A stretch of DNA of 64,000 bases, taken from contig CAZDZY010000002.1 in the NCBI GenBank assembly GCA_964510055.1, forward strand, positions 859 through 64,858, written 5' to 3'. The notes below the pieces were generated by a model that made no database searches, was not told where the DNA came from, and was given only the letters and a program-made list of their open reading frames with translations. Position numbers and translations under genes: made by a program. Shown in pieces: positions 11,095 to 24,589 of this stretch (within the stretch, counting starts at the first letter, position 1; each line of letters opens with the position of its first letter). The stretch comes from an uncultured Christensenellaceae bacterium (GTDB lineage Bacteria; Bacillota; Clostridia; Christensenellales; SZUA-584).

Positions 11095-11366
11095 ACTCTC
11101 CGGATAACAGTCATATCAGTAAATACAGACAGCAATCCTAGCATCTGCCTATAACTGCTTTTTGTTGACACGATTACTTTCCCATGGTAAATTAAACATA
11201 AACTTTGTCGAATGATATAGTAAAATATCATATCCGGATATAGTTAGTAATTTTGCTGTATCTCTCTTTTTATGTACATCTATGTTTCAGCTCAGTTCAA
11301 TCATTATTGCAGGGCGCTTATGTTTGCGCTGCAGGGACCAATATTAGTTTAAGCGGAGGTAAGAAA

Positions 11367-14090
11367 ATGAAAAAGTTCATTGCATTGTTACTATCGTTTA
11401 TCATGGTATTCTCGTTGATACCATCGATCGCGCTGGCGGAAGGCGACCCAACGCCGACGCCTGAGCCAACACCGACGGGAACGCCGATACCTGCTCCTTC
11501 GGGAACGCTAGTATCTACTACTGACCCTTATACAGAGAACGGTACGACCTATAAGACAGAAAGATGGAATGATAGCGGAACTTTGTGGGATTATTATTTT
11601 GAGAATGATATTATAGTTAGCAGACTTCAGGTTGAGCCTGATTACGACGAAACCCGTAATTTACTTGATCATGTTGTACATGTCGATTTTTACATGACAA
11701 ATTCAGAACATTTAACTGTTGTTTACATTGATGGTAATTACAGCGAAATACAAATAACATACGCTCCTCCGGATATACGTAACGGAGAGCTTCCCAGGGG
11801 ATGGGGATCTGAGGCCTATGACCCTACCTGCGGAGGCTCATTGGAACAAGAATATAATGATCCGGAAAGAACGAATAATGGTTTAGGGCCCAGTGTTACT
11901 ATTCCCGGTTTTGTCGGTGATTATCGTTATCTTGGTTCCATAACAGATGGGTATACCGCTGATATATATAGAAATGATCAAATTATTTGTTTCTATGGCG
12001 GGGAGGCACGTTATGTTAAATGGACTGAAGGTGATACAATAGGCCTTATACTTTGTGGTTTATCTTGGGTTGTCCCCGGTGCCAAAGGGATGGAATTGCT
12101 TGCATTGGTGGTAAATGTTGCTAATACTATTTTTACGGGGAGCCAGCTGTTGGCAAAAGAGGATAATGCGATATTCCTTGATTTAATATACTTCCGTTAT
12201 GATTATGTAGTTGTTTATCCTGAAGGAACTATTAAAGGATACCAAAGACTGGACGGATATTTTTACCAACAAAAATATGGATCCGACTTTTATGAATTGA
12301 GGACGCGAGATTTATTTCATATACATCATGATGGCACAATATTAAAAATCGGCGGAGTCAATAATGAAGGAGAAGATTGGGGAATCAGTATACCTGACTC
12401 TATAAGTTTTCTTCTTAACATATTGGATATCTATGGTTTTCATAATGAGACATATACAGATGATAATGACTGCTATTGTAATTATTGTAATACTCCCAGG
12501 CATATATATAATAATCCTTGTACAGATACAGTATGCGCACGATGCGGTGCACCAAGAACAGCTCCCGACCACGACTGGGTTTGGTTTCCGGCAGAGATAT
12601 GGGGCGGCTCGCCTTACATTAAAATAGGCGACGGGCATAAGCAGGTATGCAGTGTATGCGAATCTGTACAGCATGAAGAACTGCATAATAATGATGATGG
12701 TATATGGGGCGTTGATCAAGATACTATTTATGAGCTCGGCCTCTGTGATGATTGCGGCGCGCATATGCAGCGGATGCATGACTACTATTCATATTGGTAT
12801 GATCCTGATTATACATGTACGAATGGCGGCACGTGGGTAACGGATTGCCAAAATAATTGCGGTTATGTGGATTCCGTTCTAGTTTTTGACCATTCTTATT
12901 CAAACATCTGCGACGAGATCTGCGACAGGTGCCTGCAGAAGACCCGAACCGTGCTGCACAGCTATACGAACTGCGCAGATATCAACTGCAACCTCTGCGA
13001 CGCGGTTAGGACACTGCCGCCGGGTTACCAGGAATTAGACGGGCACGTATATCTTAACTGCGAAGACCTGACATGCCAAAGCTGTGAACATGAACGGCTG
13101 GACCCTGTTCACTTGCTCACGGATGTACCACTCTGGTTAACCGTTAATAAACCTAATGTATGCCAGGAATTTACCCTGCACTGCGCGAGACCGGGCTGCA
13201 CATACTCGGATGTTCAGGATACCAGAGGCCATTCCTATGCTGATTGCGCGGACGCCGATTGCGACACCATCGGCTGCAACCAGGGCAGGGGCACGGTACC
13301 GGGCACCCAATTTGATATTAACGGGCATGTGTATGATGATTGCGAAGACCCCACGTGCAACAGGGATACGTGCGGTTTTGTAAGGACTACGACCGGCCAC
13401 TACTATGGCGGCGCACCCTACTTGTTTACCATAAAGACGGAAGCTGTATGCCAGGAGCGAAGAATGGATTGCACGATACCAGGCTGCAGCCACTATGAAC
13501 CTTTGGAGACCTTAGGCCATACATATACCAACCCGTGCACAGATACGGAATGCGCATTATGCCATACACCAAGGATAGCTCCCGGCCATGCCTATAACCC
13601 CTGGCAATCCATTGGGCCTTCCGAGCACAGGCGTGCATGCACCATATGCTTTGTCACGCAGGATGGTAACCACAGCTATGACAACTGCGCGGACGGATAC
13701 TGTAACGACTGTACTTTTGACAGGGGCGCGTTGTCGGGTTATCAGTACGGCGGGCATGTATTCAGCAGTTATTGCAGCGGCGCCACATGCTTAAGATCAG
13801 GGTGCGGCGCGAAAAGGACGGCGCCCGGCCATAACTACCAGACTGTTTATGTCAAGATACACACGGCCGAAAGATGCCGGAAGGTGGTCAGGACCTGCAC
13901 CATCTGCGGCTATTCATATTACTATTATGATACCAGCCATTCCCGCTACGGTTCCTGGACAAGGACGTCTACCAAACATTCGCGGACATGCGCTGACTGC
14001 ACCTATGTGCAAAGCGGATCCCACAGCTTTACCTATATCGGTTCCGGCATTTTGCAATGCACTATATGCGGGTATCAAAAATCGGCCTAG
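11367..14090 (+). CDS. Secreted Cys/His-rich repeat protein A
   Basis: GGAGG RBS. Signal peptide MKKFIALLLSFIMVFSLIPSIALA, a Pro/Thr linker, a ~380-aa unique domain, then many H-x-Y-x(2,3)-C-x-D-x(2)-C-x(2,3)-C-x(3)-R modules and H...C-x6-C-x4-C...GH modules. No anchor motif. Confidence 0.8.
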   Translation: MKKFIALLLSFIMVFSLIPSIALAEGDPTPTPEPTPTGTPIPAPSGTLVSTTDPYTENGTTYKTERWNDSGTLWDYYFENDIIVSRLQVEPDYDETRNLLDHVVHVDFYMTNSEHLTVVYIDGNYSEIQITYAPPDIRNGELPRGWGSEAYDPTCGGSLEQEYNDPERTNNGLGPSVTIPGFVGDYRYLGSITDGYTADIYRNDQIICFYGGEARYVKWTEGDTIGLILCGLSWVVPGAKGMELLALVVNVANTIFTGSQLLAKEDNAIFLDLIYFRYDYVVVYPEGTIKGYQRLDGYFYQQKYGSDFYELRTRDLFHIHHDGTILKIGGVNNEGEDWGISIPDSISFLLNILDIYGFHNETYTDDNDCYCNYCNTPRHIYNNPCTDTVCARCGAPRTAPDHDWVWFPAEIWGGSPYIKIGDGHKQVCSVCESVQHEELHNNDDGIWGVDQDTIYELGLCDDCGAHMQRMHDYYSYWYDPDYTCTNGGTWVTDCQNNCGYVDSVLVFDHSYSNICDEICDRCLQKTRTVLHSYTNCADINCNLCDAVRTLPPGYQELDGHVYLNCEDLTCQSCEHERLDPVHLLTDVPLWLTVNKPNVCQEFTLHCARPGCTYSDVQDTRGHSYADCADADCDTIGCNQGRGTVPGTQFDINGHVYDDCEDPTCNRDTCGFVRTTTGHYYGGAPYLFTIKTEAVCQERRMDCTIPGCSHYEPLETLGHTYTNPCTDTECALCHTPRIAPGHAYNPWQSIGPSEHRRACTICFVTQDGNHSYDNCADGYCNDCTFDRGALSGYQYGGHVFSSYCSGATCLRSGCGAKRTAPGHNYQTVYVKIHTAERCRKVVRTCTICGYSYYYYDTSHSRYGSWTRTSTKHSRTCADCTYVQSGSHSFTYIGSGILQCTICGYQKSA

Positions 14091-14173: not shown

Positions 14174-14396
14174 ACTGTCAATAAGGCCAAAAATCACCCT
14201 TTTCGGGTGAGGCTTTTATTAGTGTTATGTACTATTATAATTCAAAGTTTGTCGAATAATTGATTATTTACTTATGTAGTAAATTTCATTATATATCCGG
14301 GTTTATTAAGTTGTATTTTTAGCCTCATTGAATAATACCGGCAATTATCCCGTCATATCGGGATTTGCATATTAATTTTATATGGAGGATAAACAC

Positions 14397-17267
14397 ATGA
14401 AGAAGTTTGTAGCATTGGTGTTATCGTTTATCATGGTATTCTCGCTGATACCATCGATCGTGCTGGCGGAAGACGATCTTTGCCCGGGTGAGAATTGTGC
14501 GTTTTACACTGAGTTTACTGATCCTAGTTGGAGTGTTCCGATTCATGGCGATTTCGATGTAACGGGTCAAAAAATGCATAAAGTTGCCGGAGTGAATGGG
14601 GACTCAGTTAAAATGTTTGAATATGATAGCACTGGGAACCGTACTGAACATATTATAGAGAGCATTGATGTAGATGATGGGCCAGTTGAAAATAGCTCTA
14701 TTATAAAAATTTATTATGCGCCGAATAAAGTAGAATTTTACGCTAAATATGATCTAAGAATGATATACATAGGAAGTGGCGATGCTGATCAACCCACTCA
14801 AATCTTACAGTATGAAGGTGCATGTGAAACTTGGATAAACGATAAAGTAGGAGATAAAGCAGATTTATGGATATATATAGATAATGTCTATAATACTTTA
14901 AATAGTAACAGTGGTAATTACGGAAATGAATTTGAGGCCTTTCCTCCGATCACCATGTCACATATTGGGTCAAGCACTCCCGCGGTGGCGTGTACAAAAG
15001 CACGGTTGGATGGAAATGGAAGGCCGCGCATAACGTATATTGGCAGTGGTACAACAGTGAATTGGCAAATTAGCGGTTCAGATATTGCGCAATTTTTTAT
15101 CAATTGTTTTTCAGAAACGCCGTTGGGAGCCATAACTCAGCAAATCGTTTGGATGGCTGTGGGCTATGCTATCGCTGAGCGTGATGAGGAACCAATATAC
15201 AGAGTTTACTATGTTGATTACTATCTTTTCATTCAAAAACTAAAATCTCTGCCCCCCTTGGAATTCGATAACGATTTTTCTGGCATAGGAATCGATTACT
15301 TCTCTCTAGGTCCCGTTGGATATTCTGGATGGGGTGGGCATGTTGAGTGTGGGGATTTTTTAAGAGGTGCACCCGGCGATAATTCGGTACGCGGTTGGAC
15401 GTGCATTGATCTACCTGATTTGGATGACGGCATTAATCATAATACGGATCAAGGAACGAAGGATGCGTACTTGAAGCAGCAAGTCGAACAAAGGCATCCG
15501 CACACATTTCCGGGCGAATACAATGCGCTTTGTTCGATGATATGCCCCGACTGCGGCTTCGGACGCAGAGACTGGCCTAATAATGGCCATCCTACATGCT
15601 GGATGCATGCTAAAGATCAATACGAGCAATGGAAACATGTAAAGATCGACGTAGAGTGTGACATTCCAATACTAGATTGGAATGATTCATATTCTTTTAG
15701 TACCACTAGACTGGATTGCAATTGCACAGATACTGGCAGATTTGCGGCTGATCCCAACCATATTTATACGAGTTGCGCGGACAGCATATGCGACTGCGGC
15801 TTTGAGAGAGTCCTGCCGGGCATCCCCAATTCAGACGGGCATGTGTACGATGGCTGCGAGGATATAGACTGCAACAGTATAGGGTGTACCCATGTAAGGG
15901 GCGGGTTCAACCACATCATGAGCGTACCTTACTGGTATAACGCAGAATCGCCTACGGATAATTTGTGCCAGGAATTTGAAAACTACTGCACGAGAGAGGG
16001 CTGCGATTTCACTCTGGTTTCGATGACCAGAGGCCATATCTTTACGGATTGCGAAAACCCCGTATGCAGCAGAGCAGGGTGTGGTTACGTAGGGACTCCG
16101 CTCGTACACTCCATGAGCGTACCCTACTGGTATAACGTAGAATCACCTACGGATAACGTATGCCAGAAATATGAGAATTACTGCACGAGAGAGAACTGCG
16201 AGTACACCCTGGTTTCAATGACCAGAGGCCATTCCTATGCTGATTGCAAGGCCGATGCCTGCGACCGCAGCGGATGTACCTATAACAGGGGCACAGTACC
16301 GGGCGATCAATCTGATGCTTACGGGCATGTGTATGATGACTGCGACGACACCATATGCAACAGGTGCGATTTTGAAAGGGATCCGGCCGCCCACAGCATG
16401 AGCGTACCTTACTGGTATAACGTAGAGTCGCCTACGGCTGATGTATGCCAGAAATATGAAAACTACTGCATGAGAGAGGGCTGCGATTACACTCTGGTTT
16501 CAATGACCAGGGGCCATTCCTATGCGGATTGCCAGATCGGCGCCTGCGACCGCAGCGGATGCACCTATAACAGGGGTACGGCAGCGGGTACCGTGCAGGA
16601 TGGCGGGCATGTGTATAGTGATACCTGCACGGCTACCACATGCAACAGAGATACGTGCGGTTTTGAAAGGACTGCGCCCGGCCACAGCATGAGCGTACCT
16701 TACTGGTATAACGTGGCGTCGCCTACGTCCAGCCTATGCCAGAAATATGAAAACTACTGTACGAAAGAGGGCTGCAGCTATACCCTGGTTTCAAATACCA
16801 GAGGGCATTCCTATGCGGATTGCGCGGACCGCAGCTGCGGCCGCACCGGGTGCGGCTATACCAGGGGCGCGGTGTCGGGCTACCTGCAGAGCGGGCACGT
16901 GTACAGTAATTATTGCACGGCTACCAATTGCAAAAGGTGCGGTTATGACAGGACCGCCCCCGGCCACTCCTATAACGTGCCTTACTGGTATAACGTAAAA
17001 TCGGCCAGCGTTTGCCGGGAATACAGAAATTACTGCACGAGAACAGCCTGCAGCAACTATATAGTTGTACAGAGAGATACCACCCATTCGTACACCTATA
17101 AATGGGTCAATGTGGGAAAGGCCAGCACATGCCGAAAGTATGTCGGGACATGTTCCTCCTGCGGTTATTCCTATGTGTCCTCTTATGACTACACCCATAA
17201 TCTGGTCTACATTACCAGCGGCATATACCGGTGCACCTCATGCACCTATACGGGGCCTTACGTTTAA
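14397..17267 (+). CDS. Secreted Cys/His-rich repeat protein B (paralogue of A)
   Basis: Signal peptide MKKFVALVLSFIMVFSLIPSIVLA is nearly identical to that of A. Different N-terminal domain. Five copies of H-S-M-SVPYWYNVESPT-x3-CQKYENYCTREGC-x-YTLVSMTRGH alternate with HxYxDC...C..C...R modules. Confidence 0.8.
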   Translation: MKKFVALVLSFIMVFSLIPSIVLAEDDLCPGENCAFYTEFTDPSWSVPIHGDFDVTGQKMHKVAGVNGDSVKMFEYDSTGNRTEHIIESIDVDDGPVENSSIIKIYYAPNKVEFYAKYDLRMIYIGSGDADQPTQILQYEGACETWINDKVGDKADLWIYIDNVYNTLNSNSGNYGNEFEAFPPITMSHIGSSTPAVACTKARLDGNGRPRITYIGSGTTVNWQISGSDIAQFFINCFSETPLGAITQQIVWMAVGYAIAERDEEPIYRVYYVDYYLFIQKLKSLPPLEFDNDFSGIGIDYFSLGPVGYSGWGGHVECGDFLRGAPGDNSVRGWTCIDLPDLDDGINHNTDQGTKDAYLKQQVEQRHPHTFPGEYNALCSMICPDCGFGRRDWPNNGHPTCWMHAKDQYEQWKHVKIDVECDIPILDWNDSYSFSTTRLDCNCTDTGRFAADPNHIYTSCADSICDCGFERVLPGIPNSDGHVYDGCEDIDCNSIGCTHVRGGFNHIMSVPYWYNAESPTDNLCQEFENYCTREGCDFTLVSMTRGHIFTDCENPVCSRAGCGYVGTPLVHSMSVPYWYNVESPTDNVCQKYENYCTRENCEYTLVSMTRGHSYADCKADACDRSGCTYNRGTVPGDQSDAYGHVYDDCDDTICNRCDFERDPAAHSMSVPYWYNVESPTADVCQKYENYCMREGCDYTLVSMTRGHSYADCQIGACDRSGCTYNRGTAAGTVQDGGHVYSDTCTATTCNRDTCGFERTAPGHSMSVPYWYNVASPTSSLCQKYENYCTKEGCSYTLVSNTRGHSYADCADRSCGRTGCGYTRGAVSGYLQSGHVYSNYCTATNCKRCGYDRTAPGHSYNVPYWYNVKSASVCREYRNYCTRTACSNYIVVQRDTTHSYTYKWVNVGKASTCRKYVGTCSSCGYSYVSSYDYTHNLVYITSGIYRCTSCTYTGPYV

Positions 17268-17315: not shown

Positions 17316-17345
17316 AAAAAGCCGCACGCAAGTGCGGCTTTTTCT
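17316..17345 (+). terminator. Rho-independent terminator after Cys-rich gene B
   Basis: AAAAAGCCGCAC-GCAA-GTGCGGCTTTTT. The stem core GCCGCAC/GTGCGGC is the same as in the terminator at 14147. Confidence 0.8.
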
Positions 17346-17380: not shown

Positions 17381-17409
17381 TTGACAAATGGAAATAACGG
17401 CAGTAATAT
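17381..17409 (+). promoter_or_regulatory. Sigma-A-type promoter of the PadR operon
   Basis: TTGACA (17381-86), 17-nt spacer, TAATAT (17404-09). It leaves a ~115-nt leader before the ATG at 17530. Confidence 0.55.
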
Positions 17410-17529
17410 TACTCCATCAGATAGTACTCTATCTCGCAGTGCACTGCGTTTCAGAGCACTGTCTGAAAGAGTACAATGAGTTGTTCCCGGAAACTTTGTT
17501 TTCCGGGTGCTTGAAAGAAAGGTGAGAGT

Positions 17530-17865
17530 ATGATCAGCAGCGATATTATCAGAGGTCACCTTGACCCGATCATCCTGCGCCTGATACTTGAAAAAGACCG
17601 GTACGGGTACGAGATCAGCAAAGAGATAAGCGCCCGCACGCAAGACCGCTTCCAGATCAAAGAGGCCACGCTTTACGCGGTGTTCCAGCGCCTCGAGAAG
17701 AAGAGCCTTATAAGCTCGTATGAAGGCGACGTTTCCCTGGGCGGCAAGCGGAGGTACTACAGCGTAACGCCATTGGGGCGCGCGTTTTTCCGGGAAGAAG
17801 TAGAGGAATGGCGCAAGACTAAAGAGATCATCGATATTTTTATGGAATTGGAGGAGCAAAAATGA
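17530..17865 (+). CDS. PadR family transcriptional regulator
   Basis: 111 aa. LDPIILRLILEKDRYGYEISKEI...EATLYAVFQRLEKKSLI...RRYYSVTPLG is the classic PadR winged helix. Confidence 0.85.
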   Translation: MISSDIIRGHLDPIILRLILEKDRYGYEISKEISARTQDRFQIKEATLYAVFQRLEKKSLISSYEGDVSLGGKRRYYSVTPLGRAFFREEVEEWRKTKEIIDIFMELEEQK

Positions 17866-18272
17866 AATCTATTCAGGAGCATGTGGATTCGCTGTTCCGG
17901 GATATACCCGACAGCGAGCGCAAGGAGTCTCTTAAAAGAGAGATCGTCGCTAACCTTCAGGAAAAGGTGAACGACCTTATGGCAAAGGGCAAAGAGGAAG
18001 AGGACGCTATAAACCGCGCAATAGTGGAGTTTGGGGATATAAGCGACATACGTGACGAGCTTCGAAACCAGCAGCTGCTGCCTCTTAAAAAGAGCAGCGC
18101 CGGTATACAGCTCGGGTTCTCTATAGTGGGCAGCCTGCTCATTATGGCTCTGGTGATTTTTATCAACCTGTATGTTGCGCCTGGCTTCCTTTGGTGCGTA
18201 TTCCCGATATTCGGGGTGATGTGGTGGCCGCTCGCTATGTTTTTCCGCTGGCTCAAGTACAGGAAGCAGTAA
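17862..18272 (+). CDS. HAAS/DUF1700-like signalling protein with C-terminal 2TM anchor
   Basis: ATGA overlap with the padR stop. N-terminal helical region (IQEHVDSLFRDIPDSERKESLKREIVANLQEKVNDLMAKG...AINRAIVEFGDI). C-terminal hairpin SLLIMALVIFINLYVAPGFLWCVFPIFGVMWWPLAMFF. Confidence 0.6.
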   Translation: MKSIQEHVDSLFRDIPDSERKESLKREIVANLQEKVNDLMAKGKEEEDAINRAIVEFGDISDIRDELRNQQLLPLKKSSAGIQLGFSIVGSLLIMALVIFINLYVAPGFLWCVFPIFGVMWWPLAMFFRWLKYRKQ

Positions 18273-18285
18273 AGGGGGCAAAACG

Positions 18286-19854
18286 ATGAAAAAAAGTTAC
18301 GCAACCCCCTTCGCCATAGCCGGCGTAATAATGACCGCGGCGCTGCTCGCCGTGACCAACCTTATAACTACGCCGGAAACGTTATGGTGCATCTACCCCA
18401 TATACGCCGTCGCCTGGTGGCCCATTGGCGTAGCCCTGTGCCGCGCGAAGCATTACTTCGCTTTCGCGGCAGCGGGGAGCCTGCTGACTATGGCGTTCCT
18501 CGCAGCAGTCAATATGCTGGCATCGCCGGGACATCTGAGGTTCCTTTACACTGTGCCGCCGCTGCTGTTCTTCCCCGCGGGAGTATATTTTAAGGACAAG
18601 ATGCAGTCGTTAGCCGTAGCGTTATCATTCAGCGTTATCATCATAGCATACTACGCAGTCATCAATATAATGCTTACGCCGGGGCACGTTTGGGCCATAT
18701 ATCCGATATACCTTACTTTATGGTGGCCGGTGTCGCTGTATTTTACAAGCAAAGGTCAGTACAAAGCGTTCTCCGTTGCGGGCGCAGTTATGACGATAGC
18801 ATTCTTCATCGCTTCGAACCTGTTAGAGACCGCTTTCCCCTGGGCGCTGTTCGCGTGCTTCCCTGTTCTTTGGTGGCCGGTAGCAATGTATTTCGGCAAA
18901 AAAATGGGAGGGTTAAAATTCTCAATATTCTGCTCGATATGCACGCTGCTTTGGTACGGCGCTCTCAATATATTTATCGCCCCCGGAAGCCCGTGGGTAA
19001 TGTTCGTCGCGTTCGCGCTTGCCTGGTGGGTGCTGTCGGTGTTCTTTTACGGTCGGCAGCGGCCGCATGTATACGCCGCAGTCATGAGCGTAATAAGCAT
19101 AGCGTTCTTCATAGCGGTCAACGCGATATACTCGCCCGGTGCGATATGGGCCTTCTACCCCGCTTTCGCGATTTTGTGGTGGCCCGTAACGCTGCTGTTC
19201 GCCAAGTATCACGCATGGCGCGGATACGCTTTTACCGCGAGCGCCATGACCATAGGCTTCCTCGCCGCGGTCAACGTGATCACGTCCCCCTCTTACCCGT
19301 GGAGCGTGTTCCCCGCTTTGGGGATACTCTGGTGGCCGCTGGCCACGTGCTTTAAAGGAAGGCATAAGCCTTTCGGCTTTTCGATAGCGGCTGTGATACT
19401 CATCGCCGCGACGCTGGCGGCTGTAAACCTTATAACGTCGCCCGGTATCCTCTGGTGCGTTTTCACCGTACCGGCTCTCCTTTGGTGGCCGCTGGCGGCC
19501 GGGTTCGCAGGAAAACACAAGCCTTTCGGCTTTGCGATCTTAGGCGCCCTGCTCGCTATAGGAACGCTTGTCGCTATAAACCTGATCACTTCCCCGTCGT
19601 TCCTGTGGAGCGTATTCGCCGCACTCGGCATACTATGGTGGCCGGCGGCAGTGCTGTTCGCGAAAAAGAAGAGCCCGCTCGGGCTCTCGATCGCGGGCAG
19701 CATGCTCGCAATGGCGCTGCTGGCAGCGATAAACTTCATGACGTCGCCGGGATTCCCGTGGTGCGTGTTCCCGCTGTTCGGCATACTGTGGTGGCCGCTC
19801 AGCGTGTATTTTCACGTGACGCGCAAGCGCAGGTTTGCGGAGCAGAAAGCGTGA
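18286..19854 (+). CDS. Polytopic membrane protein made of ten tandem 2TM-hairpin repeats
   Basis: 522 aa. Ten ~50-aa units with consensus ...LAAVNLITSPG-x-LW-x-VF-x3-GILWWP-x5-F-x-K-HKPFGF.... This is the same unit as the anchor of the preceding gene. Confidence 0.7.
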   Translation: MKKSYATPFAIAGVIMTAALLAVTNLITTPETLWCIYPIYAVAWWPIGVALCRAKHYFAFAAAGSLLTMAFLAAVNMLASPGHLRFLYTVPPLLFFPAGVYFKDKMQSLAVALSFSVIIIAYYAVINIMLTPGHVWAIYPIYLTLWWPVSLYFTSKGQYKAFSVAGAVMTIAFFIASNLLETAFPWALFACFPVLWWPVAMYFGKKMGGLKFSIFCSICTLLWYGALNIFIAPGSPWVMFVAFALAWWVLSVFFYGRQRPHVYAAVMSVISIAFFIAVNAIYSPGAIWAFYPAFAILWWPVTLLFAKYHAWRGYAFTASAMTIGFLAAVNVITSPSYPWSVFPALGILWWPLATCFKGRHKPFGFSIAAVILIAATLAAVNLITSPGILWCVFTVPALLWWPLAAGFAGKHKPFGFAILGALLAIGTLVAINLITSPSFLWSVFAALGILWWPAAVLFAKKKSPLGLSIAGSMLAMALLAAINFMTSPGFPWCVFPLFGILWWPLSVYFHVTRKRRFAEQKA

Positions 19855-19884
19855 CGCAAAAGCATTTTCTTAATCACTTTAATG

Positions 19885-19917
19885 CAGAGGGACGGCCGTA
19901 AATCGGCCATCCCTCTG
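19885..19917 (+). terminator. Terminator-like hairpin after the 2TM-repeat gene
   Basis: CAGAGGGACGGCCG-TAAAT-CGGCCATCCCTCTG (one mismatch) followed by TTCATTT. Confidence 0.6.
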
Positions 19918-20043
19918 TTCATTTATTTATAACGTTAATCTTTGTCATAGTTATGGTACTAATCATATATAGCTGTGTCGAATCTTGACATTTAATGAAA
20001 TACTGGTATGATTGATATAAAAATACATTAAGGAGCAATATAA

Positions 20044-20826
20044 ATGTCTGTTATACCGGTCATAATCCCAAAGACACGGAAAGGACTCATAATTCTTTTA
20101 GCCGTACTGTTCGTTATCTGCGCAGGCGCAGCCGTATTCACGTATTTTTCCTGGTCGTCAGACCAGCAGGCGCTCAAAACAAGCGGGCAGCCCGACTTCA
20201 ATACGCTGTCTGAAGCCGACTTAAAAGGCGGCCTCATAGTTAAAGGCACTATAGACATAGCTCTCGACGCGTACGTCGAGGATTATGAAACTACCGTCGG
20301 CATACGTTTTTCCGACAACAGCGAGGCGCTGTATTATCTCGTTCCTATATACGACATGGATAAGGACGGCTACATAACCTTTAAGTATCTGATAACATAT
20401 AAGGCCGAACCCAAAGATTTTGACGCGATGAATGATATCGCAACGAATTTCTGGAACGGCGGGGCCGAGCTCAAAACGCTCACAATCGATAACGCGAAGA
20501 TAGTCGATCTTCCCGCCGAAAACAAACGTCTTTTTGCCGAATGGGCCTCCACTCCCAACTATTACGAAGGGGGATCGTTTTATGACTGGTGCGCCGAGAC
20601 GCTTGCTTTCGGAACTGACGACAGGGCAGCCATAGAATCAAAGTTCGTTCCCTATATGATACAAAAGACGGCCACCGCAGGCACAGACCCTGTGGTCATG
20701 TGGATACTCGCAGGAGCCGCGGGGCTTTGCCTGATAATACTCGCAGTGGTGCTAATTCGCAAGAAGCCGATAAGCGGTGTAGCAAATAACACCGGCGACC
20801 CGGATATCATGAGGCCGATGCAATAG
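20044..20826 (+). CDS. Hypothetical bitopic membrane protein (N- and C-terminal TM)
   Basis: 260 aa. AAGGAG RBS. TM at residues ~15-35 and near the C-terminus (VVMWILAGAAGLCLIILAVVLI). No family recognised. Confidence 0.55.
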   Translation: MSVIPVIIPKTRKGLIILLAVLFVICAGAAVFTYFSWSSDQQALKTSGQPDFNTLSEADLKGGLIVKGTIDIALDAYVEDYETTVGIRFSDNSEALYYLVPIYDMDKDGYITFKYLITYKAEPKDFDAMNDIATNFWNGGAELKTLTIDNAKIVDLPAENKRLFAEWASTPNYYEGGSFYDWCAETLAFGTDDRAAIESKFVPYMIQKTATAGTDPVVMWILAGAAGLCLIILAVVLIRKKPISGVANNTGDPDIMRPMQ

Positions 20827-21064: not shown

Positions 21065-21826
21065 TTATCCAAGCAGCGCATATATAAACGCTCTCAGCGC
21101 TATATCCAGCATCCATCCGGGAAGTTTGAGGGGTTTTGCGAAATACCCTTCTGGCAGTTCGATGCGCATCGTAATGCCCTCGTAAGGCTCAAGATGCTGT
21201 ATATTGCCGTTGACGGTATTCCCGTCTACAGTATATGTAAGCTTAGCCGGATCGTATCCCATAACGCCGGGCGCCCCTGCTGAGAACCCGATCTTGCCCC
21301 CATCGAATCCTTTGGGCAGCGTAACCGAAAACGTCATATTATCGATAGGCGTATCCCAGCCGGAGCCTATTATATTGTAATAGACCTCGTCAAAACTGTC
21401 GGCACCGTCGTCTCCGAATCTCAATTTATATGAAATACGGTAAGTCTGGTCACCGATCACATACCGGTCGGCGCTGCCTATCTTTATCGATACGGTCTCA
21501 CTGTCGTCCTGCACGGTGAATTCCCAGCCCTCGACGTTAACGTCGCTGACGCTTGAAGGAACGATGGTGGTGATGCTTTCCCCATTCGGGCCTGTACGCG
21601 TCATCTCCCCGTTTATCGGGATATCGCGGTATATTCCATGCCTTTCTTCGTTAAAGCGGACTTTTATAACTTCGGTTATGTAGTATACGTTATTTTCAGA
21701 GATTACAACCTTAACGTCGTATCCCGTTACCACGCACCCCCCAGCCGGCTGCGCCCATGCGCTCCACGGCGTCACAATCGCGCATAGCAGCGCCGCGCAG
21801 ATAAGCGCTATTACCGCTTTTTTCAT
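21065..21826 (-). CDS. DUF2207 N-terminal ectodomain protein, truncated paralogue of 5827..7734
   Basis: 253 aa. Collinear with the first ~250 aa of the 648-aa DUF2207 protein (VISENNVYxITE, RHGIYRDIP, VEGW, DEVYYNI, MRIELP.GYF). It stops just as the first TM of the long paralogue would begin. Confidence 0.65.
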   Translation of the reverse strand: MKKAVIALICAALLCAIVTPWSAWAQPAGGCVVTGYDVKVVISENNVYYITEVIKVRFNEERHGIYRDIPINGEMTRTGPNGESITTIVPSSVSDVNVEGWEFTVQDDSETVSIKIGSADRYVIGDQTYRISYKLRFGDDGADSFDEVYYNIIGSGWDTPIDNMTFSVTLPKGFDGGKIGFSAGAPGVMGYDPAKLTYTVDGNTVNGNIQHLEPYEGITMRIELPEGYFAKPLKLPGWMLDIALRAFIYALLG

Positions 21827-22050
21827 ATCCGACGCTCCTTCCGGTTAAATTCATTCATGCCGTAATGATATAATTTTATTCTATTATATTCAAGCAGAGT
21901 TTTGTTTTGGCTTTCCATCTGCCGGAATATTATTTGCCCCAACCGGAAAATCATATAATCGTCCTAAAAAAGCCATCCTCTGCCTTGACATTACATACCA
22001 TGTTTCTTATACTTTTAATAGATATCAGGACTTCTGGCGGAGGTATATTC

Positions 22051-23142
22051 GTGCTTAAGAAAATATTTGGTTTGATATTAACTGCTGCGCTTGTTTTTTC
22101 CCTGTTTCCCGCGGCAACGGCTCTCGCGTCGGATGAGCTTAAAAACACCGACCCGGAGAAATATTATATAGTTCTCGATCTTAAAAATCAGATCGTGACC
22201 GTATACGAGAAGGACAAAGACGGGGAATACACAAAGATTGTGCGGCGTTTTTTGTGCACCAGCGGAAAGACGGAACCTAAAATGATGCCTGACCCTGCGA
22301 ATCCCACAGGTCCACCAATTGAAGATCCAGATAACCCCGCCACCCCCACTCCCCTGGGGATATGGAAGGTAGGCGGGCGCGAGAGGTTCGGCAAGTTCGC
22401 CGCGTTCGGGGGGGAATATGCCCGCTACTGGACGCAGATAGTCGGCGGCGTTTATTTCCATTCCATCATGTTCGACAAGCGCGATATCAACTACATGCAG
22501 AGCGGCGCTTTTAGGCGCATAGGAAGCAAGGCCTCGCACGGCTGCGTGCGCCTTTACGTGGAAGACGCCAAGTGGCTCTATTATTACGCCTGCCCCGGTA
22601 CGACCGTAGAAGTTACTGATAAGCTTCCGTCCAACAACGCCGCGAGAAAAAAACTGAAAACCAAATTGTCGTTTTCGACTTACAACGCTTTTCAGAAGAA
22701 GATATACGATATCGGGGAACTGCCCAACCCAATAGCCTGGGTAGTTAAAGACAAAGCTGAAATGCGAACTGGGAACGGCGGCGAGACCGACAGGATAGTA
22801 AAACGTATCCCCGAAGGCGAGCAGGTGGAAGTGTTGCAGGTTGCGGAGCCATGGTGCAAGATCAAGCACGGAGGCCGCGAAGGTTATATGCGCACGGCAT
22901 ATATCACGTTTGAGCAGGGCAAGATGAACTCTAAGGCTGACGCCGATATTGTGAAGAAAACAGCCTGGATGTATACCGCTGCGTCTGAAAAGTCGGAGCA
23001 GATCACAAAAGTGCCTTCGTATTCATCTATAAAGATAATCGAACCCGATAAGGACGGCTGGACGAAAATACAGTATTGGGATGAAACCGGCTACATACAG
23101 ACCAAGTTTTTAACCAAAGGCTGGGGAGTAATAAGGGAATAA
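22051..23142 (+). CDS. L,D-transpeptidase (YkuD domain) with two C-terminal SH3b-like domains
   Basis: GTG start at 22051 after GGAGG. Signal peptide LKKIFGLILTAALVFSLFPAATALA. Catalytic motif SHGCVRL. The C-terminus has two SH3-like units (GEQVEVLQVAEPWCKIKHGGREGYMRTAYI and IKIIEPDKDGWTKIQYWDETGYIQTKFL). Confidence 0.8.
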   Translation: MLKKIFGLILTAALVFSLFPAATALASDELKNTDPEKYYIVLDLKNQIVTVYEKDKDGEYTKIVRRFLCTSGKTEPKMMPDPANPTGPPIEDPDNPATPTPLGIWKVGGRERFGKFAAFGGEYARYWTQIVGGVYFHSIMFDKRDINYMQSGAFRRIGSKASHGCVRLYVEDAKWLYYYACPGTTVEVTDKLPSNNAARKKLKTKLSFSTYNAFQKKIYDIGELPNPIAWVVKDKAEMRTGNGGETDRIVKRIPEGEQVEVLQVAEPWCKIKHGGREGYMRTAYITFEQGKMNSKADADIVKKTAWMYTAASEKSEQITKVPSYSSIKIIEPDKDGWTKIQYWDETGYIQTKFLTKGWGVIRE

Positions 23143-23845: not shown

Positions 23846-24589
23846 TTATTTCATCAAAAATCCGGCTCTCCTTAAGAGCGCCTCAAAATCATACGTCTGC
23901 CCCTTGAAACCGCGCAGCCAATCGTTGAAAAACCAGTCGAAATAGTTCGCATACCCTGCGGAATTCCAATAATTCTCTATACCAAGCCGGTTTTCCCTTT
24001 TACCGTATTCGGCGACTATTTCCCCGGCCCGTTCCCGCAATATCTTTGTGTATTTCCCGCGGTGCACTACGCCCGGCCCTCCCAGCCTTCCGCGCGCTGA
24101 GGCGGGATGCTGCGCATACCCTATAAGCAGCATTATAAGAGGCACGCAATATTTTTCGGGCAGTTCGAGCATCTTATACACCCGGTCAACGTCTCCCCTG
24201 TGTATGCCGTTGGTGAACATATAGTCCAGCCCGAGCGATTTCGCCGCGACAGCGCCGTTCTGCGCGGCGAGTATCGTATCGGTGCTGTATGTGATAAAGC
24301 TCAATATCCCTCCCGCTCCGATGTCCTCCCCGAGATGGGCGGCAACGTCTATAGTACGGTTGAAATCTACGCAGTAGACTATAGCCGCTGGGCTCCCGTA
24401 GCCGCACAGCTTTCGTATAGTCTGCGCGTCTTCAAACGTTATCAGCGAGTAATTTTGCGCAGCCGAAGCGGTAGCGGCGCGCAGGCTTGCGCTTATTACT
24501 GCCTCAAGGTCTACAGCGTTTACCGGCCTTTCGGTAAACGTACCGTGCGTCGTTGCCATACTGTGTATGGTCTTCAATGTTTCATTCAT
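23846..24589 (-). CDS. Nitroreductase family protein
   Basis: Start at MNETLKTIHSMATTHGTFTERPV.... Carries SLRAATASAAQNYSLITFED and a typical nitroreductase-fold pattern. 8-nt overlap with the upstream marR. Confidence 0.65.
   Translation of the reverse strand: MNETLKTIHSMATTHGTFTERPVNAVDLEAVISASLRAATASAAQNYSLITFEDAQTIRKLCGYGSPAAIVYCVDFNRTIDVAAHLGEDIGAGGILSFITYSTDTILAAQNGAVAAKSLGLDYMFTNGIHRGDVDRVYKMLELPEKYCVPLIMLLIGYAQHPASARGRLGGPGVVHRGKYTKILRERAGEIVAEYGKRENRLGIENYWNSAGYANYFDWFFNDWLRGFKGQTYDFEALLRRAGFLMK

Follow-up and report, generated by a model that had tools for sequence, protein, structure and literature searches.

The window analysed here, 64,000 nucleotides (nt) of contig CAZDZY010000002.1 from an uncultured Christensenellaceae bacterium (GenBank assembly GCA_964510055.1), carries on its forward strand a three-gene module in which a PadR-type repressor gene is followed by genes for two membrane proteins with related hairpins. 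The first gene, padR (17530-17865), encodes a 111-amino-acid (aa) winged-helix repressor of the short PadR type. Gene 2 (17862-18272) overlaps the padR stop codon by 4 nt through a shared ATGA (GAGCAAAAATGAAATCT) and specifies a 136-aa candidate membrane-tethered co-regulator, composed of a HAAS-like domain and one two-transmembrane (2TM) hairpin. Gene 3 (18286-19854) starts 13 nt beyond the gene 2 stop, has its own ribosome-binding site (AAAGGGGG), and encodes a 522-aa protein of ten tandem 2TM hairpins with a total of 20 transmembrane (TM) helices. A first-pass annotation of this DNA, made from the sequence alone, had delineated the three open reading frames (ORFs) at these coordinates, noted the ATGA coupling, and assigned a single membrane hairpin to gene 2; our analysis confirms each of these points.

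Repeat alignment shows that gene 3 is made up only of ten units of ~51 aa (R1, 18295-18447; R2, 18448-18600; R3, 18601-18753; R4, 18751-18903; R5, 18904-19056; R6, 19057-19209; R7, 19210-19362; R8, 19363-19515; R9, 19516-19668; R10, 19669-19821). All share one plan: the first TM helix terminates in an invariant Asn, a brief S/T-P-G turn and a Trp follow, and the second helix contains a Pro and the motif WWP. There is exactly one Asn per unit, accounting for the ten Asn residues of the full protein, and WW[P/V] is present in nine of the ten units; repeat 2 is degenerate (FFP) and has lost its Trp residues. Identity between repeats ranges from 20% to 57% at the protein level and is 43-57% among R7-R10. 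The last four copies had been thought very similar at the DNA level as well, which we do not find: they are only 53-63% identical, and Tandem Repeats Finder detected nothing in the DNA of gene 3, even at a score of 30.

The gene 3 protein contains 29 Trp, 36 Pro, and 29 Lys or Arg residues, and only four Asp or Glu. Across 73 family members, Lys and Arg make up 0.8% of positions in the hairpin turns versus 23.6% in the connectors and tail, and by the positive-inside rule this distribution predicts that both termini and all of the Lys/Arg-rich connectors are cytoplasmic, with outside turns of just 4-5 residues per hairpin. Gene 3 is therefore nearly all buried in the bilayer and, having no room for an extracellular ligand-binding domain, could sense or act only inside the membrane. 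The AlphaFold model of the protein (mean pLDDT 85.8, pTM 0.59) shows the 20 helices of the hairpins, with a one-residue interruption in four of them, matching the topology anticipated in the first-pass annotation. A Foldseek search of the Protein Data Bank (PDB) with this model returned no significant match; the best of the weak ones are soluble, open TPR-type helical-hairpin solenoids, which would fit an open, extendable hairpin stack that tolerates 4 to 13 units. Exact-sequence look-up found neither the gene 3 protein of the window nor the protein P0001 on record.

The hairpin of gene 2 (residues ~84-130; 18102-18254) is the only TM element of that protein, and it follows a charged, soluble N-terminal domain. 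In BLASTP searches with composition-based statistics, this hairpin aligns to all ten gene 3 repeats, with E values from 3e-20 (repeat 10, 54% identity) to 1e-6 (repeat 2). The homology between the two is real and far beyond chance. Gene 3 had been described as ten copies of exactly the gene 2 hairpin; the count of ten stands, and the units are homologues of that hairpin rather than exact copies, at 53% identity for the last repeat and 25-43% for the others in the repeat alignment. This special closeness recurs across the family, where the last array hairpin ranks first in similarity to that of gene 2 at 48 of 52 loci with four repeats, nine of 11 with nine, and six of seven with ten. Among orthologues, conservation is highest in the gene 2 hairpin (74%) and next highest in the last array hairpin (58%), with the other three at 44-51%. 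This pattern is compatible with a specific contact between the two hairpins or with a common partner, without amounting to proof of either.

To place the module in a broader context, we drew on two scans: a genome scan with gene 3, using one genome per species and an alignment of eight closer sequences as the query, which yielded 24 loci, and a metagenome scan with gene 2, which yielded 80 further loci; all were annotated by profiles. In ~108 loci from Clostridia and Bacilli, nearly all have padR, then a HAAS-like gene with one or two hairpins, then an array. This order holds in 22 of 22 genome loci with full context and in nearly all of the 80 metagenome loci with enough downstream DNA. Three gene 3 homologues (57%, 34%, and 34% identity) each lie behind a PadR gene and a gene for a 136-199-aa protein within otherwise unrelated flanks, and the closest relative of gene 3, at 80% identity, is found in a Christensenellaceae metagenome-assembled genome (MAG). 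The genome-scan loci belong to many uncultured Bacillota, Papillibacter, Clostridiales UBA1316, Bacillus massilioanorexius, and Virgibacillus proomii, and the trio is also present in the cultured species Peribacillus loiseleuriae and Metabacillus fastidiosus. When all ORFs in the flanks were clustered, no further conserved neighbour emerged, with no family occurring in more than 14 of 108 loci. The first-pass annotation had raised the prospect that hairpin-repeat genes are distributed at random with respect to PadR-HAAS loci; instead, almost every such gene retrieved lies directly downstream of a pair of this kind. These distributions indicate joint inheritance of all three genes of the module. 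Within it, the three proteins diverge to different degrees, with identities between closely related genome loci of 47-80% for gene 3, 74-88% for gene 2, and 86-95% for PadR.

Array length varies widely, as the first-pass annotation had guessed it might. The modal array has four hairpins (~210-224 aa), and numbers extend from three or four up to 13, the latter in P0005, with complete genes of 5, 6, 7, 8, 9, 10, and 12 hairpins in between. Long arrays bear the marks of recent tandem duplication in two zones, where unit identity reaches 88-98% in P0005, up to 90% in P0010, and 76-88% in P0019. Because the four-hairpin form is modal and long arrays grew by tandem duplication, the ten-hairpin gene of the window is best read as an expanded member of a family and not as the singular 20-TM protein it had first seemed. 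Assigning the repeats of long arrays to the four types of short arrays is noisy and gives consistent results only for a central B-C(-D) core. The division between gene 2 and the array also varies. Some gene 2 proteins contain two hairpins, next to arrays of four or six, and at one locus (L005, 4668-6542 of MAG contig JAEZNC010000186.1) the HAAS-like domain stands in a single ORF with a ten-hairpin array, gene 2's own hairpin being replaced by a short linker that looks out of frame (CCGGRSPCSSAGSSTRSKRGGN). The L005 arrangement may be a natural fusion or an assembly or frameshift error. Taken with the two-hairpin form of gene 2, it suggests that the boundary between gene 2 and the array slides among loci.

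The padR product is a typical member of its family. It matches Pfam PF03551 (E 4.8e-19, residues 15-88 of 111), aligns over its full length with its closest solved structures (1xma, E 1.4e-30; 9qbd; 5dym; LmrR), and has the winged helix and single C-terminal helix of the short (~110 aa) PadR type; orthologues in related loci are 67-95% identical. Upstream of padR, a 21-bp palindrome (TTACTCTATCAGATAGAGTAA) is present in 94 of 97 loci, usually in two copies. Many distant loci have one copy overlapping or embedding the -35 element TTGACA and another overlapping the -10 region. In the window, a sigma-70-type promoter is predicted at 17381-17409 (plus strand; TTGACA, 17 nt, TAATAT; 10 of 12 consensus matches), an arrangement also seen in close relatives (e.g., L004 and L012). 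We built a position weight matrix (PWM) from the palindrome sites upstream of padR and ran it over the whole window. The three top matches all fall in the padR promoter, directly after the -10 box: predicted operator 1 (17409-17429, TTACTCCATCAGATAGTACTC; 23.5 bits), which abuts the -10 box; predicted operator 2 (17424-17444; 19.5 bits), which overlaps operator 1; and predicted operator 3 (17454-17474; 17.6 bits), within a long inverted repeat at 17410-17473. This layout of predicted operators on padR's own promoter is a signature of autorepression. No further convincing operator emerged in the window; the fourth-best match (24282-24302, GTGCTGTATGTGATAAAGCTC; 14.3 bits) lies in coding DNA, scores under the 5th percentile of real sites, and probably arises by chance. 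Judged within the 64 kb, the operon seems to regulate mainly itself.

Predicted signals on either side delimit the module. Upstream, a terminator-like hairpin at 17316-17343 (plus strand), in which two perfectly complementary 12-nt arms (AAAAAGCCGCAC/GTGCGGCTTTTT) enclose a 4-nt loop ahead of a T-run, appears to close the preceding Cys-rich gene and to mark the 5' boundary of the padR module. An Rfam scan of the leader found no family above threshold, the matches at 17316-17343 being only sub-threshold terminator-like ones. Downstream, an intrinsic terminator is predicted at 19884-19930 (plus strand), in which a 14-bp interrupted stem precedes UUCAUUUAUUUAU; the RNA fold has a dG of -27.3 kcal/mol and a z score of -7.41 against 200 shuffles. 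The next gene after gene 3 has its own predicted promoter at 19985-20012. Because the operon has its own promoter, with a terminator on either side, padR, gene 2, and gene 3 alone are predicted to form a separate transcription unit.

The soluble part of gene 2 lies N-terminal to its hairpin, or to both hairpins in some orthologues. It is a predicted three-helix HAAS-like, or "permease prefix 1", domain spanning residues ~3-71. Residues 11-68 match the NCBIfam model NF038403 ("permease prefix domain 1") with 60.1 bits against a cutoff of 30; the model also matches gene 2 orthologues, and RefSeq names the orthologues of Neobacillus, Peribacillus, and Metabacillus "permease prefix domain 1-containing protein". 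We infer that the NF038403 domain is the HAAS domain found fused to FtsX-type permeases (PMC11237479). One orthologue (P0385) has a precomputed match to the Pfam HAAS model PF22564; scores of orthologues against this model lie at E 0.057-0.12. Neither gene 2 nor its family profile produced more than chance-level matches when searched against PDB sequences. AlphaFold places helices at residues 3-11, 19-41, 46-71, 80-105, and 109-135 with low confidence. With reservations set out below, we treat gene 2 as a HAAS-superfamily protein.

The hairpin is rare, its unit profile matching only 142 clusters at E <= 0.001 in a search of 1.84 billion representative proteins. The strong matches are arrays or gene 2-type proteins, and those in the weak tail are true members of the Pfam 2TM-domain family (PF13239). 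In the opposite direction, DUF6320 (PF19845) matches 60 and 2TM (PF13239) 16 of 77 array proteins at E <= 0.01. Single units and four-hairpin members score under the gathering cutoffs of both models. The window's gene 3 reaches 40 bits with DUF6320 (cutoff 29.9), aligned only on positions 9-68 of 186, and its four-hairpin relatives 23-25 bits; the 2TM cutoff of 24.8 bits is reached neither by the best single unit (20.6 bits, E 4.7e-4) nor by the gene 2 hairpin (11.3 bits). Both search directions thus point to the hairpin as a specialised, distant branch of an uncharacterised 2TM/DUF6320 superfamily. NCBIfam has no model for gene 3 or its four-hairpin relatives. In the literature searched, no paper names DUF6320 or PF13239, and "2TM domain" and PadR occur together only in the PSP/HAAS paper. 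Eight proteins from the weak tail of the profile search (P0344, P0354, P0358, P0362, P0369, P0370, P0373, and P0375; 300-600 aa) have two or three tandem Pfam 2TM domains and are otherwise unannotated; hairpins of this type thus occur in tandem outside the PadR module as well.

The kind to which the module belongs had been put forward earlier on comparative-genomic grounds. Ravi, Anantharaman, Aravind, Gennaro et al. (mSystems 2024; PMC11237479) described dyads of HAAS and PadR-like winged helix-turn-helix (wHTH) proteins and, in the available text, state that the HAAS gene always adjoins a standalone PadR-like wHTH gene. There, HAAS is defined by a run of three helices with a kink in the last one at a conserved GxP motif, and its listed fusion partners are permeases of the FtsX type and "various uncharacterized 6TM, 4TM, and 2TM domains" (PMC11237479). 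Our locus shares with these dyads the standalone short PadR gene followed by a protein whose N-terminal domain, of three predicted helices, is joined to TM segments, and the NCBIfam name "permease prefix 1" derives from their HAAS-FtsX permease context. It departs from the dyads, as the available text describes them, in having a third gene composed of tandem copies of the HAAS anchor. The first-pass annotation had taken sequestration of PadR by HAAS as established; the published text available offers physical binding as a proposal drawn from comparative genomics and speaks of "release or reconfiguration" (PMC11237479). No Pfam match to the PspC, LiaI-LiaF-TM, or Toastrack partners was found in the operon or its neighbours.

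Several experimentally studied systems resemble parts of the module. The closest in gene order are operons of Listeria monocytogenes, lltR (lmo0599)-lmo0600-lmo0601 and the lstR operon, whose repressors "mainly regulate their own operons" of membrane proteins (PMC6624303), as we predict here. In the lltR-type operon, as in ours, a PadR repressor precedes a multi-spanning DUF1700/HAAS protein and a third envelope protein; the third Listeria gene encodes a DUF4097 (Toastrack-type) protein instead of a hairpin array, and the likening to lmo0600 and lmo0601 is by description only (PMC6624303). In the LftR-LftS system, also a PadR repressor co-transcribed with a small HAAS-superfamily co-regulator, LftS (DUF1048) is genetically required to relieve LftR repression, and derepression is triggered by a membrane-active, pore-forming antibiotic (PMC4517056; bioRxiv 10.1101/2023.07.27.550809). 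The available text of these reports mentions no membrane segment in LftS and no array gene, and it gives as the main LftR target an ABC transporter elsewhere in the genome and as the operator GTAWTAC-N3-ATAC, which differs from ours.

BC4206-BC4207 of Bacillus cereus likewise pairs a PadR gene with the gene for a small, structurally uncharacterised polytopic membrane protein, the 4-TM BC4207. The pair is induced by the membrane-active bacteriocin AS-48, and BC4207 alone raises resistance (PMC2774856). Unlike our trio, the operon has just two genes; BC4206 is related to the window's PadR only distantly (4esb, E 1.2e-9), and BC4207 is compared with our proteins by description only. The best-known analogue is SdpR-SdpI of Bacillus subtilis, in which an autorepressor is captured at the membrane by an immunity and signalling protein (PMC2910880). 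The likeness is one of logic only, an autorepressor and a polytopic membrane protein sharing an operon. SdpI serves as both sensor and protective output, and its family varies in TM number. Unlike our PadR, SdpR belongs to the ArsR family, and the system has neither a separate tether protein nor tandem hairpins; the operon proteins have no Pfam or NCBIfam match indicating SdpI homology. Tandem helical units in one chain are known from the 13-hairpin single-chain rotor subunit of the Methanopyrus kandleri A-ATP synthase and from the Piezo blade. Unlike the array, these have fixed copy numbers and known functions, and they show no sequence likeness or detectable fold likeness to it; the sole trace is a sub-threshold match (E 0.011) of the Piezo THU model to one homologue.

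The first-pass annotation had offered scaffold, decoy, or co-sensor roles for gene 3, among which the present data do not choose. We tentatively favour a model in which the trio is an autorepressed membrane-stress module that combines sensor and effector, with a tethered HAAS domain docking on the array, and we rate its chances as a little short of even. PadR would repress its own operon. The HAAS-like domain would bind PadR and control its release, as proposed for HAAS-PadR dyads and with LftS as a precedent. The gene 2 hairpin would pack side-on against the array, much as the array hairpins would pack on each other, and the likeliest docking site would be the free edge of the C-terminal hairpin, its closest relative in nearly every locus. 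The array would then offer a larger surface within the membrane on which a membrane-borne insult is detected, for example a peptide or other compound that is membrane-active, or an altered state of the bilayer. Disturbed packing between hairpin and array would be relayed to the HAAS domain, PadR would leave its operator, and more tether and array would be made until the disturbance was absorbed. The array probably would also buffer or soak up the insult as a protective output, a role we assign to it because the operon seems to be mainly self-regulating and because BC4207 is itself a resistance factor in B. cereus. Support for the steps falls, in our estimate, from PadR autorepression through HAAS control of PadR and tether-array packing to sensing and output by the array.

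A number of observations weigh against this model. The HAAS-like label of gene 2, first given from the sequence alone, holds clearly for NF038403 and not for the Pfam HAAS model PF22564, which gene 2 matches only at E 0.013 (16.3 bits; cutoff 27 bits). The GxP kink is half present in the gene 2 family: G58 is invariant in the motif EFGD[I/V], with the Pro replaced by Ile or Val. On both counts gene 2 differs from the dyad proteins as described in the available text of PMC11237479. Its AlphaFold model is poor (pLDDT 60, pTM 0.24), with the N-terminal helices at pLDDT ~50-60. PadR and gene 2 also occur without an array, in Shimazuella soli and S. kribbensis (L026 and L027) and in L081, L101, and L103, and the tether can therefore work without one. 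Finally, in the dereplicated four-repeat class the last array hairpin is no more like the gene 2 hairpin of its own locus (46.7%) than like those of other loci (46.9%; p 0.60), and their likeness could come solely from a constraint common to C-terminal hairpins. An excess in pooled loci had suggested co-evolution or concerted evolution of the two hairpins; we reject this explanation because the excess vanished in the dereplicated four-repeat class, where identity within loci equals that between loci. The likeness thus appears to be an old, maintained feature of the class and not the product of ongoing gene conversion or detectable co-evolution.

The most serious competing explanation, which we consider possible but on the whole unlikely, is that gene 2 and PadR form the full sensor and that the array is solely an induced output that does not touch gene 2. 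The array would be immunity-like or membrane-reinforcing, its many copies of one hairpin binding or diluting a membrane-active toxin, and the similarity of the hairpins would stem from common descent and a common ligand. This explanation draws strength from the apparent self-regulation of the operon, which requires some member to be the output, and from BC4207, a PadR-linked membrane protein that is itself a resistance factor (PMC2774856). The existence of PadR and gene 2 pairs without an array agrees with it, as does the fact that gene 3 evolves fastest of the three, and the very recent duplications (88-98% in P0005) would fit selection for dosage or in an arms race. It leaves unexplained why the gene 2 hairpin specifically resembles the last array hairpin in almost all loci, why these two hairpins are the most conserved, and why the gene boundary slides so that gene 2 has one or two hairpins; it is also without a known ligand. 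The first of these points is accommodated by a decoy, or negative-feedback, arrangement in which the last hairpin mimics that of gene 2 and competes for its self-association or for a common partner, so that newly made array would reset or damp the switch and repeat number would tune its gain. Translation of both proteins from one mRNA would fix their relative dosage, and the dimeric state in which PadR proteins work, known from structures such as LmrR and 1xma, makes pairing of the tether plausible. Nevertheless, we find this arrangement doubtful. A single hairpin would be enough for mimicry, leaving the other 3-12 without a role, covariation within loci was not found, and the argument is inferential throughout.

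A transporter or channel under PadR control, with gene 2 as an accessory subunit, would be in keeping with the frequent control of efflux systems by PadR regulators (LmrR-LmrCD, LadR-MdrL, and LftR-LieAB; PMC6624303, PMC4517056) and with the naming of the gene 2 domain for its place in front of FtsX-type permeases. Gene 3 matches no transporter family in Pfam or NCBIfam and no solved structure significantly, the one Asn per hairpin is its sole conserved polar residue in the membrane, and 4 to 13 interchangeable, still-duplicating units are hard to square with a fixed fold; we regard a transport function as very improbable. Near-identical recent duplicates in some members might even suggest that the repeat gene is evolutionary debris left by runaway duplication. 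The conservation data effectively refute this reading, to which we give almost no credence: ORFs are intact in more than 100 loci from two Firmicutes classes, the N, W, P, and WWP residues are conserved by position in every unit, and conservation extends to the expression signals and to how the repeat types are ordered.

If the combined sensor-plus-effector model is taken one step further, the array can be pictured as a new kind of membrane protein, an alpha-solenoid with open ends that runs along the bilayer within its plane. Its interchangeable 2TM hairpins would form an intramembrane antenna whose length (4-13 units) is tuned by repeat gain and loss, and the look-alike hairpin bearing the HAAS domain would cap its free end, such that bending, thinning, or ligand loading is read out as release of PadR. 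We speculate along these lines while judging that the picture, in all its particulars, is probably wrong, with something like one chance in a handful of being right. Were the antenna to exist, it would constitute a membrane-state sensor without a kinase, an extracellular domain, or a solved structural analogue. If the predicted fold is true, the array would also rank among the few natural cases of an intramembrane repeat protein whose length varies, of relevance to the evolution and design of membrane proteins.

It has been suggested that, at the membrane of Gram-positive bacteria, HAAS-PadR pairs offer a widespread alternative to two-component signalling. The trio represents an unusually simple case of such a pair, comprising three genes, one promoter, a clear predicted operator, and no other conserved partners, with a "sensor" that consists of membrane helices only. 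In the literature searched, we found no description of a partner built from tandem copies of the HAAS anchor, nor of the array copy-number range, the conserved operator, or the link between the tether and the terminal hairpin. The module provides functional context for parts of two orphan Pfam families, DUF6320 and 2TM. Its presence in cultured Bacillaceae (Metabacillus fastidiosus, Peribacillus loiseleuriae, and Virgibacillus proomii) makes genetics possible.

Upstream of the module lie two adjoining genes (11253-14090 and 14382-17267) for proteins of ~950 aa with signal-peptide-like N-termini and many Cys-rich internal repeats, in which motifs of the form GH.Y..C.D..C...C recur. The first-pass annotation had pointed to the position of the operon immediately downstream of this pair. 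The adjacency is real, and we reject a functional link: a predicted terminator separates the two, the padR operon is its own transcription unit, and the Cys-rich pair is found beside the padR module in no related locus, so that its position here appears incidental. PADLOC defence-protein models matched none of the three module proteins.

Other genes near the module were noted in passing. The downstream neighbours at 20044-20826 and 21065-21826 (minus strand) encode membrane proteins without assigned function, with matches to DUF6709 (E 6e-11) and to the DUF2207 N-terminal domain (E 1.6e-25), respectively. Further along, 21907-23142 encodes a 411-aa protein with an SH3-like C-terminus and the motif SKASHGCVRL, which by eye resembles the active site of YkuD-type L,D-transpeptidases; the Christensenellaceae MAG L004 has a copy of 81% identity downstream of its module. 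In Metabacillus fastidiosus (L109, 1050-1934), a DUF4097 (Toastrack-type) gene and an ABC-2 membrane gene are located ~2 kb upstream of the padR module, which may be a coincidence.

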